Of a DNA stretch of 1,295 nucleotides, positions 1-1,295 are shown piece after piece (position 1 is the first letter of the stretch; each line of letters begins with the position of its first letter). The translations under genes and the position numbers were made by a program. The notes under the pieces are model-generated. The model saw only the letters and a program-made list of their open reading frames with translations, searched no databases and was not told the DNA's origin. Origin of the DNA: Escherichia coli (GTDB lineage: Bacteria; Pseudomonadota; Gammaproteobacteria; Enterobacterales; Enterobacteriaceae); the NCBI RefSeq assembly GCF_003334385.1, contig NZ_QOWN01000117.1. One strand, written 5' to 3'.

Positions 1-271
1 GTTCAAAGAGGCATACATCAATGCCTTTAACCAGATGGAGAAACAGCTTTCAAATCCCTCTGTACTGAGCGACGTTGCACATAACGCCAGCGTTCTCTAT
101 TCCTACATTTCATCAATTCATCAGGTCTGGCTGCAGCAGCTTTATCCCATGTTGGCAAAAGCCGAATCCCCGCTGGCTGTAAGTCTGTATGACCGCATCA
201 ACGACGCGGCGCTACTGGCCAGTCTCATAAATTTGTCGCTGAACCCTTCAGAGGTAAGGGGGCGCAAATGA
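1..271 (+). CDS. Hypothetical protein, 5'-truncated at the window edge (about 90 C-terminal residues visible)
   Basis: Frame 2 is open from position 2 to the TGA at 269-271. The first in-window ATG (35-37) has no Shine-Dalgarno motif upstream, so the true start is probably upstream of the window. The stop overlaps the next gene's start (ATGA). No family recognised by eye. Confidence 0.6.
   Translation, partial: FKEAYINAFNQMEKQLSNPSVLSDVAHNASVLYSYISSIHQVWLQQLYPMLAKAESPLAVSLYDRINDAALLASLINLSLNPSEVRGRK
256..262 (+). promoter_or_regulatory. Shine-Dalgarno-like ribosome-binding site for the CDS starting at 268
   Basis: AAGGGGG, 5-nt spacer, then ATG; embedded in the 3' end of the upstream gene. 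Confidence 0.6.
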
Positions 272-492
272 TCCGGAATATTTTCAAACGGTTTACCAAT
301 CAGACTTTCCGTTGTCCTCGTCCTGGTCAGTGGTACACCACGCCTGCAGGGCATGTTCTACGTGTCAGCCTGGTTGACCGTGAATGTCAGAAGGTGATTT
401 GTGAACCGCTGGGCCGTAATTACCGCATCAGTATGCCGCTTATAGCCTTTTGCTCCGGAAAAATGTTTAAGCGTCTGGGAGGTGTGGCGTGA
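268..492 (+). CDS. Hypothetical small basic protein (74 aa) with four cysteines; possible nucleic-acid-binding or metal-binding protein
   Basis: ATG at 268-270 lies 5 nt downstream of AAGGGGG (256-262). The ORF runs to TGA at 490-492. By my count it has 13 Arg/Lys against 3 Asp/Glu, with Cys at residues 16, 40, 45 and 62 and His at 29. It overlaps both neighbours by 4 nt. Confidence 0.7.
   Translation: MIRNIFKRFTNQTFRCPRPGQWYTTPAGHVLRVSLVDRECQKVICEPLGRNYRISMPLIAFCSGKMFKRLGGVA
477..482 (+). promoter_or_regulatory. Shine-Dalgarno-like ribosome-binding site for the CDS starting at 489 (GTG)
   Basis: GGGAGG, 6-nt spacer, then GTG; embedded in the 3' end of the upstream gene. Confidence 0.6.
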
Positions 493-788
493 ACTGTTTT
501 CAGTTTGTGTGCGGATGTGCTTTCGATAACCCGATTCAGCGCCTGATTATGTTGCGTGTTTTGATGTCGGGTTCTTCAGACGGTGAAGGCGAGAGAGTTA
601 TTGATCATCAGGTGCTTGCTGATTTCTGCTGTTGTTCTAAGCAAGCGATATTCAGGGAAACCCTGGCACTGGAAAGAGCTGGTTATCTTCATATCCGAAA
701 AATTGCAACGCTTACTATTGATGCAAAAGCCAGACTACAACCTGCGCGTGGCTACACAATTCTCATGCCGCGGAAGGAGGTTGTATGA
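489..788 (+). CDS. Hypothetical 99-aa protein with a helix-turn-helix-like segment and two cysteine clusters; putative small DNA-binding regulator
   Basis: GTG at 489-491 lies 6 nt downstream of GGGAGG (477-482). The ORF ends at TGA 786-788. The internal ATGs at 549 and 564 have no Shine-Dalgarno motif, so the GTG is preferred. Residues about 40-69 (HQVLADFCCCSKQAIFRETLALERAGYLHI) fit a helix-turn-helix pattern. Cys clusters are C-G-C (nt 510-518) and C-C-C (nt 627-635). Confidence 0.65.
   Translation: MNCFQFVCGCAFDNPIQRLIMLRVLMSGSSDGEGERVIDHQVLADFCCCSKQAIFRETLALERAGYLHIRKIATLTIDAKARLQPARGYTILMPRKEVV
774..780 (+). promoter_or_regulatory. Shine-Dalgarno-like ribosome-binding site for the CDS starting at 785
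   Basis: AAGGAGG, 4-nt spacer, then ATG; embedded in the 3' end of the upstream gene. Confidence 0.65.
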
Positions 789-1295
789 GCCGTTACGCCC
801 CCACACCGGAAGTTATGGCTATTGGTCAAATTAATATTTCCGGCAATGTTACACCTGCGAACTGGTGGAAATATATTCGACTACCCAGTGGGCGTCCGGA
901 TGCGACGGCTATCGCTCTGCTTTCAGAGATCGTTTACTGGTACCGCCCGACAGAGGTCAGGGATGAGCACACCGGAGCGTTGCTGGGATATCGCAAGCGT
1001 TTTCAGGGCGACAAACTGCAAAGAAGCTACCAGGCGTTTGCTGAGCAGTTTGGTTTCGGGAAAAGGGAAACCGCAGATGCGCTGAAGCGTCTGCGCGATG
1101 CAGGGTTTATTACTCTGGATTTACGCACGGTGGAAATGCTCGATGGGGTGAAATGCAGCAATATTTTGTTTGTCGGGATCAACCCACAGGCAATTGCGGC
1201 CATCACCACACCTTCTTCTGTTTCGCCAGAAAGTAACAGCAATAATGCAATCAGCGATACAGCTATTACGTTAAAACGGAACACCCCCCGACGTC
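785..1295 (+). CDS. Putative winged-helix DNA-binding protein, possibly a phage/plasmid replication-initiator-like N-terminal domain; 3'-truncated at the window edge
   Basis: ATG at 785-787 lies 4 nt downstream of AAGGAGG (774-780). Frame 2 is open to the end of the window, about 170 codons with no stop. The segment FGKRETADALKRLRDAGFITLDLRTVEMLDGVKCSNILFVG looks like a recognition helix followed by a beta wing. It is followed by a Ser/Asn/Thr-rich low-complexity stretch (TTPSSVSPESNSNNAISDTAIT) typical of an interdomain linker. The functional assignment is by pattern resemblance only. Confidence 0.7.
   Translation, partial: MSRYAPTPEVMAIGQINISGNVTPANWWKYIRLPSGRPDATAIALLSEIVYWYRPTEVRDEHTGALLGYRKRFQGDKLQRSYQAFAEQFGFGKRETADALKRLRDAGFITLDLRTVEMLDGVKCSNILFVGINPQAIAAITTPSSVSPESNSNNAISDTAITLKRNTPRR

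Follow-up and report, generated by a model that had tools for sequence, protein, structure and literature searches.

A Rha-family prophage gene of Escherichia coli behind an IsrK/C4 RNA cassette: a probable RNA-gated antirepressor at the head of a translationally coupled chain

Hershko-Shalev et al. (2016, PMC4825925) showed that in the Salmonella prophage Gifsy-1 isrK, orf45, and anrP are transcribed from the isrK promoter, in a long RNA that is not translated until the short IsrK acts on it; expression of AnrP raises antQ expression and induces Gifsy-1 (PMC4825925). IsrK has been likened to seqA of P4, and STnc1160 to the CI RNA, which in P4 acts via premature transcription termination (PMC4825925); in P1, both icd and ant are under C4 control (PMC8198154). 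Here we analyse a stretch of Escherichia coli DNA of 1,295 nucleotides (nt), from contig NZ_QOWN01000117.1 of assembly GCF_003334385.1 (“the window” means this whole stretch throughout), which opens with the 5'-truncated end of a Rha-family gene. With a probability of about 70%, we read this as an antirepressor-type gene, gated by C4 and IsrK, that heads a translationally coupled chain.

As such, the truncated open reading frame (ORF) is ordinary: roughly one in five of the complete E. coli genomes carries this Rha-family prophage regulator, the window being matched in 1133 of 5426 of them and over at least 80% of its length in 41 (megablast). The Rha family, the IsrK and C4 RNA families, and the regulatory logic (P1/P7, P4, Gifsy-1) are all already known, and the locus adds one more case, set apart by its cargo and by where it lies in the phage genome. 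What is new, as far as the literature searched shows, is the corrected gene boundary, the reading of “Ash” as translated RNA, the seven specificity types, and the shared hairpin domain. Two Rfam RNAs and a conserved gene of 59 amino acids (aa) go unseen beneath the standard annotation, which speaks of a “Rha family regulator,” a “peptidase,” or an “antirepressor” and adds an “Ash” domain.

The IsrK/C4 cassette and the extent of the gene

Frame 2 of the window has no stop from base 2 to the TGA at 269–271 in the ORF translation, and its product begins FKEAYINAFNQMEKQLSNPS and ends in ...LNPSEVRGRK. The preliminary description had taken it for the truncated last part of a gene in an operon extending upstream, with no motif to assign, and in all three respects it was right. 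The best match, 99.8% identical, is a lambdoid prophage integrated beside ybdK (locus L001, in which the window is 12001–13295; coordinates prefixed L001 refer to it); there, 292 further open codons lie upstream, and the gene sits within the early-right operon. The Pfam and NCBIfam Rha models stop at residues 106–109 of the 181-aa protein defined below, leaving only the last ~14–17 residues of the matched regions inside the window, and NCBIfam gives nothing for the window fragment, nor for the 74-aa, 99-aa, 327-aa, and 59-aa ORFs that surround it. Window bases 2–268 are coding beyond chance: over 51 distinct homologous sequences, polymorphic sites fall 23/18/58 at codon positions 1/2/3 (chi-square p = 5.6e-7).

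Two RNA genes precede the protein. IsrK (RF01394) matches at L001:11486–11562 with 62.3 bits against an Rfam gathering score of 50, and a C4 antisense RNA (RF01695) at L001:11584–11671 with 75.1 bits against 45; the c4-a1b1 model stays below its gathering score in L001 (22.6 vs 46.7) and is above it in Gifsy-1, Sakai, and locus L088. The Rfam scan of the window itself returned only a chance match to a small nucleolar RNA (E 0.5). IsrK is preceded by a promoter, TTGATT-17-TACACT, whose form TTGAY-17-TAYAYT is common to Gifsy-1 and Sakai and which was read from the sequence, the consensus scan not having listed it (8/12 matches), and it ends in an intrinsic terminator composed of a hairpin and T7 (L001:11540–11564); covariance match, own promoter, and terminator together identify it as IsrK. 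When the three-helix Rfam C4 structure is applied to 8 variants of the gene family, 100% of 215 cells pair, 8 pairs show compensatory double changes, and slid controls pair at only 33–49%.

In L001, loop b' of C4 is CAUGUGCGA, complementary to UCGCACAUG, which occurs once inside IsrK (b1) and once immediately 5' of GAGG-N9-ATG at 11726 (b2), and segment a' UACGCCAA matches UUGGCGU in an IsrK loop (a1) and again at ~11684 (a2). Site b2 ends 2 nt before the Shine–Dalgarno (SD) sequence GAGG and 14 nt before the ATG at 11726. The (b', a') pairs fall into seven types, in which b1 measures 8–12 nt, b2 9–12 nt, and a1/a2 6–7 nt, and loops and targets change together. In five of them b2 includes the SD itself, for example GUCAACGGAGG; these are L031 (b' CCGUUGAC, target GUCAACGG), L041 (b' CUUUGGUGA, target UCACCAAAG), L046 (b' CCGAUAAC, target GUUAUCGG), L066 (b' CCGUAUGC, target GCAUACGG), and L005 (b' CUAUGUUGA, target UCAACAUAG). 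A covariance match with its structure, covarying a/b target pairs, and a downstream target at the ribosome-binding site are expected of a C4 system, and these are found here.

The cassette also locates the true start of the gene. In Gifsy-1, isrK and C4 lie immediately 5' of AnrP (STM2616), and in VT2-Sakai they lie in the same way before a P22-like Ant; in a five-way alignment, the promoter boxes, the SD GAGG, and the cargo ATG coincide with the AnrP and Ant starts. SD and ATG are invariant at this point, so that the gene really begins at L001:11726, which lies 275 bases ahead of window base 1, and its protein has 181 aa. Diverged homologues (50–65% identity) all begin M-[AT]-[TS]-x-P and measure 181–187 aa from there, and one database entry (P0139) has been called from exactly this start.

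RefSeq instead annotates a 381-aa “Rha family regulator” at L001:11126–12271, of which the window begins at residue 293. We computed nucleotide diversity by annotated codon position over 5, and then 51, distinct homologues. The Rha region (0.113/0.090/0.251 at positions 1/2/3) and the C-terminal domain (0.064/0.047/0.181) show the third-position excess of coding DNA, while the IsrK region (0.24/0.20/0.17), the C4 region (0.21/0.22/0.26), and nt 11672–11725 (0.34/0.34/0.32) are flat, and from IsrK to b2 the polymorphic sites number 48/48/47 (p = 0.99). Further upstream, at nt 11275–11454 (0.068/0.158/0.077), the peak falls on annotated position 2, where a 59-aa ORF read in a different frame has its wobble position; this ORF begins MQELNRWFRDGRGLYVHVIRWEPETQRVIYLRKDYPHECF and is represented among the PHROGs by a separate family (phrog_1343, 1.9e-36). 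Count-based periodicity over it reaches only p = 0.16 because some loci have replaced the upstream segment; the diversity measures are clear. Protein-like evolution is thus confined to the last 181 codons, and the annotated N-terminal 200 codons cover the 59-aa ORF, IsrK, and C4.

The “Ash” domain of the annotation belongs to the same stretch. The Phage_ASH match in L001 spans 11474–11758 and so coincides with IsrK, C4, and b2; despite a hidden Markov model match of 1.1e-13 to PF10554, the flat diversity there denies it the standing of a coding domain. The conceptual “cI gene product (AA 1–137)” of P4 (L091 8168–8584, minus strand) matches Phage_ASH as well (8.3e-16) and contains an Rfam C4 of 74.9 bits. 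Pfam Phage_ASH thus appears to be the conceptual translation of the isrK/C4 RNA cassette, and the family as a whole seems to be largely translated RNA; no paper linking Phage_ASH with C4 RNA was found in the literature searched. The Rha gene is not to be filed as an Ash-domain protein.

Downstream, the stop of the Rha gene overlaps the start of the 74-aa ORF (ATGA, 268–271), and further start/stop overlaps follow at GTGA 489–492 and ATGA 785–788, each of the three downstream genes (74-aa, 99-aa, and 327-aa) having its own SD inside the gene before it. Three successive overlaps of this kind make the coupled chain, which the preliminary description had seen from the letters, a real one. Its true head, we infer, is not the first base of the window but the ribosome-binding site gated by the C4 antisense RNA.

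The Rha protein and competing readings

The protein belongs to the Rha family by Pfam Phage_pRha (PF09669, 6.4e-32 over residues 221–306 of the 381-aa ORF, or 21–106 of the 181-aa protein) and by NCBIfam TIGR02681 (114.3 bits against a cut-off of 45.95). Its AlphaFold2 model (mean predicted local distance difference test [pLDDT] 82) is composed of an alpha/beta Rha domain at residues 13–82, predicted to be a winged-helix-like module, a long helix at 88–109, and a helical hairpin formed by 112–145 and 149–172, with pLDDT above 90 over residues 120–170. F93 is nearly invariant in the family alignment. The hairpin carries the motif AHNA..x..IHxVW..LYPxL..ESPLA..LYDRINDA, with N120, W135, P141, L143, S148, P149, A151, L154, D156, and D160 invariant, and lies outside every Pfam and NCBIfam model. 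The family is narrow: 1.84 billion representative proteins yield 24 clusters at E up to 1e-3; a search of PDB sequences with the family profile gave nothing significant (best E 0.49), and Foldseek against BFVD found only other Rha or antirepressor predictions.

What makes the hairpin informative is the company it keeps. It also occurs behind an AntA head (P0129), in a gene that follows Q and is preceded by isrK (80 bits) and C4 (74 bits), and behind Bro-N heads (P0142 and P0143). The P0142 gene comes directly after a divergent Arc/Arc pair, which is the layout of P22 mnt-arc-ant; the Bro-N context was read from this gene, P0143 not being placed on a contig. The hairpin may therefore be regarded, from these sequence comparisons, as a candidate shared effector or oligomerisation module of antirepressor-type proteins. 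Because one hairpin tail sits behind three heads, all in the usual antirepressor slots, the Rha protein itself, by analogy, most likely acts as an antirepressor-type regulator.

If the start at 11726 is the right one, the longer and shorter proteins that can be drawn on this DNA have to be explained away. The annotated 381-aa protein, in which an N-terminal region, “Ash,” Rha, and the C-terminal domain would be translated as one from the ATG overlapping the ymfL stop, has in its favour a frame that in 73 of 81 loci stays open for 201–220 codons before the Rha ATG, the Pfam match to Phage_ASH at residues 117–211, PHROGs 821, 995, and 3960 spanning its N-terminal part, and the many proteins of 381–387 aa in the databases. 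It nevertheless lacks codon periodicity over residues 1–200, the signal at residues 50–110 belonging to the other frame; its “Ash” stretch is exactly IsrK and C4, with an intrinsic terminator and compensatory RNA covariation, and in P4 the same Pfam model matches the conceptual “cI protein,” in which the CI/C4 RNA gene lies. Furthermore, stops break the in-frame extension at 78–162 codons in 7 of the 81 loci (in an eighth the contig ends first), and L021, L025, L028, and L037, four distinct upstream variants, have the sequence 5' of the conserved −35 box wholly replaced. On the flat diversity and the RNA genes beneath “Ash” we reject a real Ash–Rha fusion of 381 aa, which we consider highly improbable; the 381–387-aa annotation is probably a read-through artefact. 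At the other extreme, the preliminary description had allowed that an in-frame stop just upstream of the window would turn the ATG at base 35 (present in the ORF listing) into the start of a free-standing 78-aa gene. The matching prophages refute this: there is no such stop in L001, amino-acid conservation continues upstream, and the coding signature reaches as far as the ATG 275 bases before window base 1. Since the upstream frame is open and the coding signature continues through it, the ATG at 35 is Met104 inside the modelled helix 88–109 and not a start, and the probability of a 78-aa gene is negligible. A form of 227 aa, read also or mainly from the AUG in the 5' end of C4 (L001:11588) with a leader of 46 residues, deserves more attention, and we would call it improbable rather than negligible. 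That AUG, which corresponds to the orf45 start of Gifsy-1, where translation of anrP requires translation of orf45 (PMC4825925), is fused in frame with Rha without a stop in 22 of 23 distinct upstream sequences. Yet the 46 leader codons are without protein-level constraint (26/29/32 polymorphic sites, p = 0.73), SD and ATG are conserved after b2 at the 181-aa start, and the L030 type has a spacing of 136 nt, which breaks the fusion.

The function is more open to dispute than the start, and several observations weigh against a C4-gated antirepressor. The 81 codons before the Rha ATG (L001:11483–11725), which span C4 and most of IsrK, hold no stop in the Rha frame in 22 of 23 distinct upstream sequences, and 0–5 stops in the other frames; the C4 AUG lies in frame at 138 or 141 nt, so an isoform of 227 aa with an N-terminal extension may exist, or the cassette may be translated through. 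AnrP and Sakai Ant compared with the Rha protein gave BLASTP E values above 0.9, and hhalign E of 0.55 (AnrP) and of 0.012 over 34 columns (Sakai Ant), short of homology; it is the context, therefore, and not similarity to AnrP or Ant, that suggests an antirepressor role for the Rha protein. In the literature searched we found no characterised Rha-type antirepressor of the same family. A near-identical hairpin stands beside at least 8 different helix-turn-helix (HTH)-S24 repressor clusters without co-variation with the neighbouring repressor, and C4 types are likewise shuffled relative to repressor type; if a repressor is the target, recognition would have to be broad, or aimed elsewhere than at the neighbour. 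These neighbouring repressors look RecA-cleavable, and an antirepressor is thus not obviously needed. The structural model was built on an alignment of just 13 sequences, and Foldseek against the PDB gave nothing significant (best E 0.16, to PadR). The chief competitor is that the Rha protein is no antirepressor but a regulator that binds specific DNA sequences, or else serves the replication module encoded after it as an accessory factor. It would suit the winged-helix-like alpha/beta model of the Rha domain, the PadR-type dimeric regulators that are the best (non-significant) solved matches, the coupling of the gene to replication genes, and a C-terminal domain indifferent to the neighbouring repressor. 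It fits less well with the finding that all three head types occupy classical antirepressor slots (isrK and C4 twice, arc once), or with downstream replication genes that vary between relatives while the Rha gene is constant, and we hold it to be a minority possibility, perhaps one chance in a few. A defence-system gene was also considered and rejected; PADLOC produced only noise (E ~0.006–0.008).

On the preferred reading, a C4-gated antirepressor-type gene, the cassette would work as follows. In the lysogen, its own promoter would supply IsrK and, via read-through, C4; C4 cut out of the read-through transcripts would pair with a2/b2, occluding the ribosome-binding site, and the Rha protein would not be made. 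The 74-aa, 99-aa, and 327-aa genes would be silenced too, through coupling and polarity, because the start/stop overlaps tie them to Rha translation. Once C4 is outrun or titrated, either by IsrK with its a1/b1 sites or by heavy transcription from pR, the chain could be translated. An RNA-gated ribosome-binding site thus predicts silencing of the replication genes in lysogens, including those of Stx2a and Stx2c phages with the same module. A wider proposal, which we put forward tentatively and think somewhat doubtful, is that the IsrK/C4 cassette gates the whole chain through the replication initiator, which would give lambdoid prophages a second, P4-like layer of RNA immunity over replication, with at least seven specificity types assorting independently of CI repressor type, and that the ~70-residue hairpin may serve the Bro/Rha/AntA antirepressor network as a portable effector domain not described before.

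Prophage context and neighbouring features

The upstream region, where the preliminary description had proposed to look for a prophage, holds one. In L001, the left part runs from integrase and excisionase through to rdgC and an S24/LexA-type repressor on the opposite strand, followed by ydaS (cro-like), ymfL (cII-like, phrog_101), the 381-aa “Rha family transcriptional regulator,” and the 74-, 99-, and 327-aa ORFs; to the right of the replication genes lie PerC, Dam, RusA, KilA-N, Q, and the lysis genes. Phages mEp460, Stx2a_1447, 118970_sal3, and F1055 share this gene order. Window bases 1–484 are found at 83–95% identity in mEp460, cdtI, Stx2a_1447/WGPS2, several Stx2c phages, Salmonella 118970_sal3, and F1055, whose annotations call the gene a Rha protein, an antirepressor, a transcriptional regulator, or a peptidase. 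Beyond base 484 the module differs among relatives, and because the phage similarity stops there, the replication module is a mosaic breakpoint. Over the 2.4 kb upstream in loci L006–L085, the C4 specificity type, the variant of the Rha domain, and the repressor cluster vary independently of one another, and on its left the cassette is bounded by the −35 box of the IsrK promoter. The features of the window are collected in the table.

Table. Features of the 1,295-nt window (window coordinates)
Feature	Position	Strand	Evidence
Rha-family gene, codons 93–181 and TGA	2..271	+	Translation, 99.8% match, polymorphism pattern, Pfam/TIGR02681 on upstream part
Residues 93–109, end of long helix 88–109, which completes the Rha domain and connects it with the C-terminal one	2..52	+	AlphaFold2 model
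C-terminal helical hairpin domain, helices 112–145 and 149–172	59..241	+	AlphaFold2 model, invariant residues
74-aa ORF, phrog_1153 (function unknown)	268..492	+	2e-44; hypothetical protein in L001–L005
99-aa ORF, like the N-terminal part of replication initiation proteins	489..788	+	phrog_4617, 2e-29
5' part of 327-aa replication initiation/DnaD-like gene, which leaves the window	785..1295	+	phrog_270, 8.5e-76; phrog_1701, DnaD-like

Two proteins in the databases, P0123 (821 aa) and P0126 (402 aa), are read-through of two tandem C4–Rha units, with a repeated MVGxxG...MATxP, and suggest, at the sequence level, tandem duplicated C4–Rha cassettes in some prophages.

The region upstream of the cassette touches on a known K-12 gene. 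The ymfM gene of e14 (“cell division inhibitor YmfM”; L090 4323–4661) shares the ymfL-overlapping ATG with the 381-aa ORF. In the most conserved stretch that e14 and L001 share (L001:11275–11454), almost every difference is silent when read in the other frame, that of the 59-aa ORF, and the phrog_1343 ORF of e14 starts at a TTG after AAGGAG. The published ymfM filamentation construct held the entire ymfM ORF, and therefore the embedded 59-aa ORF was present too. In P1 immI, the division inhibitor icd adjoins c4 and ant (PMC8198154). Between the 59-aa ORF (L001:11275–11451) and the 74-aa ORF of the window there is weak similarity, with a phrog_1153 cross-match of E 0.008 and a BLASTP E of 0.05 over 25 residues.

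In the replication module, the 99-aa ORF matches only positions 3–93 of the 223-position phrog_4617, and the next ORF matches other initiator/DnaD-like families; relatives have a single, different replication gene at the position of the 99-aa and 327-aa ORFs. The 327-aa gene, annotated “replication protein” in several genomes, contains direct repeats from window 1258–1295 on to L001:13356, in which TACAG(C/A)(T/G)ATTAC occurs three times, and a second repeat, ACGT(T/C)A(A/T)AACGGAACA, that occurs twice. As judged from their sequence, these repeats are candidate origin iterons, as in lambda O.

Comparison with known systems

The Rha protein itself has its nearest described counterparts in the Rha proteins of phi80 and P22, with which it shares the Rha domain (P22 rha is 35% identical over residues 17–124 by tblastn); the C-terminal parts differ. 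The product of phi80 and P22 rha is described as inhibitory to phage growth in hosts deficient in IHF.

The a/b target logic of P1/P7 c4, reportedly set out by Citron and Schuster in 1990, is recognisable in the present cassette. As in P1/P7 immI, the antisense RNA would be processed from the same transcript, loops a' and b' match upstream a1/b1 and downstream a2/b2 sites, specificity types are set by loop sequence, and the immI cargo is a secondary antirepressor. The two differ in the point of attack: P1 blocks the ribosome-binding site of icd, to which ant is coupled, whereas here b2 abuts the SD of the cargo itself. The cargo, moreover, is a Rha-domain protein and not P1 Ant, and the host element is a lambdoid prophage.

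A close relative in the content of the cassette is isrK-orf45-anrP of Gifsy-1, in which promoter, IsrK with its terminator, C4-type RNA (the STnc1160/orf45 region), and cargo SD and ATG follow in identical order, with equivalent Rfam matches and aligned cargo start codons. The cargo differs, neither sequence nor profile comparison finding AnrP similar to the Rha protein; the Gifsy-1 cassette lies between Q and lysis, and the present one between the cII-like gene and the replication genes; and the stop of the 45-aa orf45 overlaps the anrP ATG, whereas here the frame continues into Rha. In its layout, the locus comes closest to the left operon of P4 (seqA, CI RNA, seqC, epsilon, ..., alpha), where the isrK-like and C4 Rfam families stand in the same order and are followed by epsilon (helper derepression) and then alpha (replication), although P4 is a satellite phage and not lambdoid.

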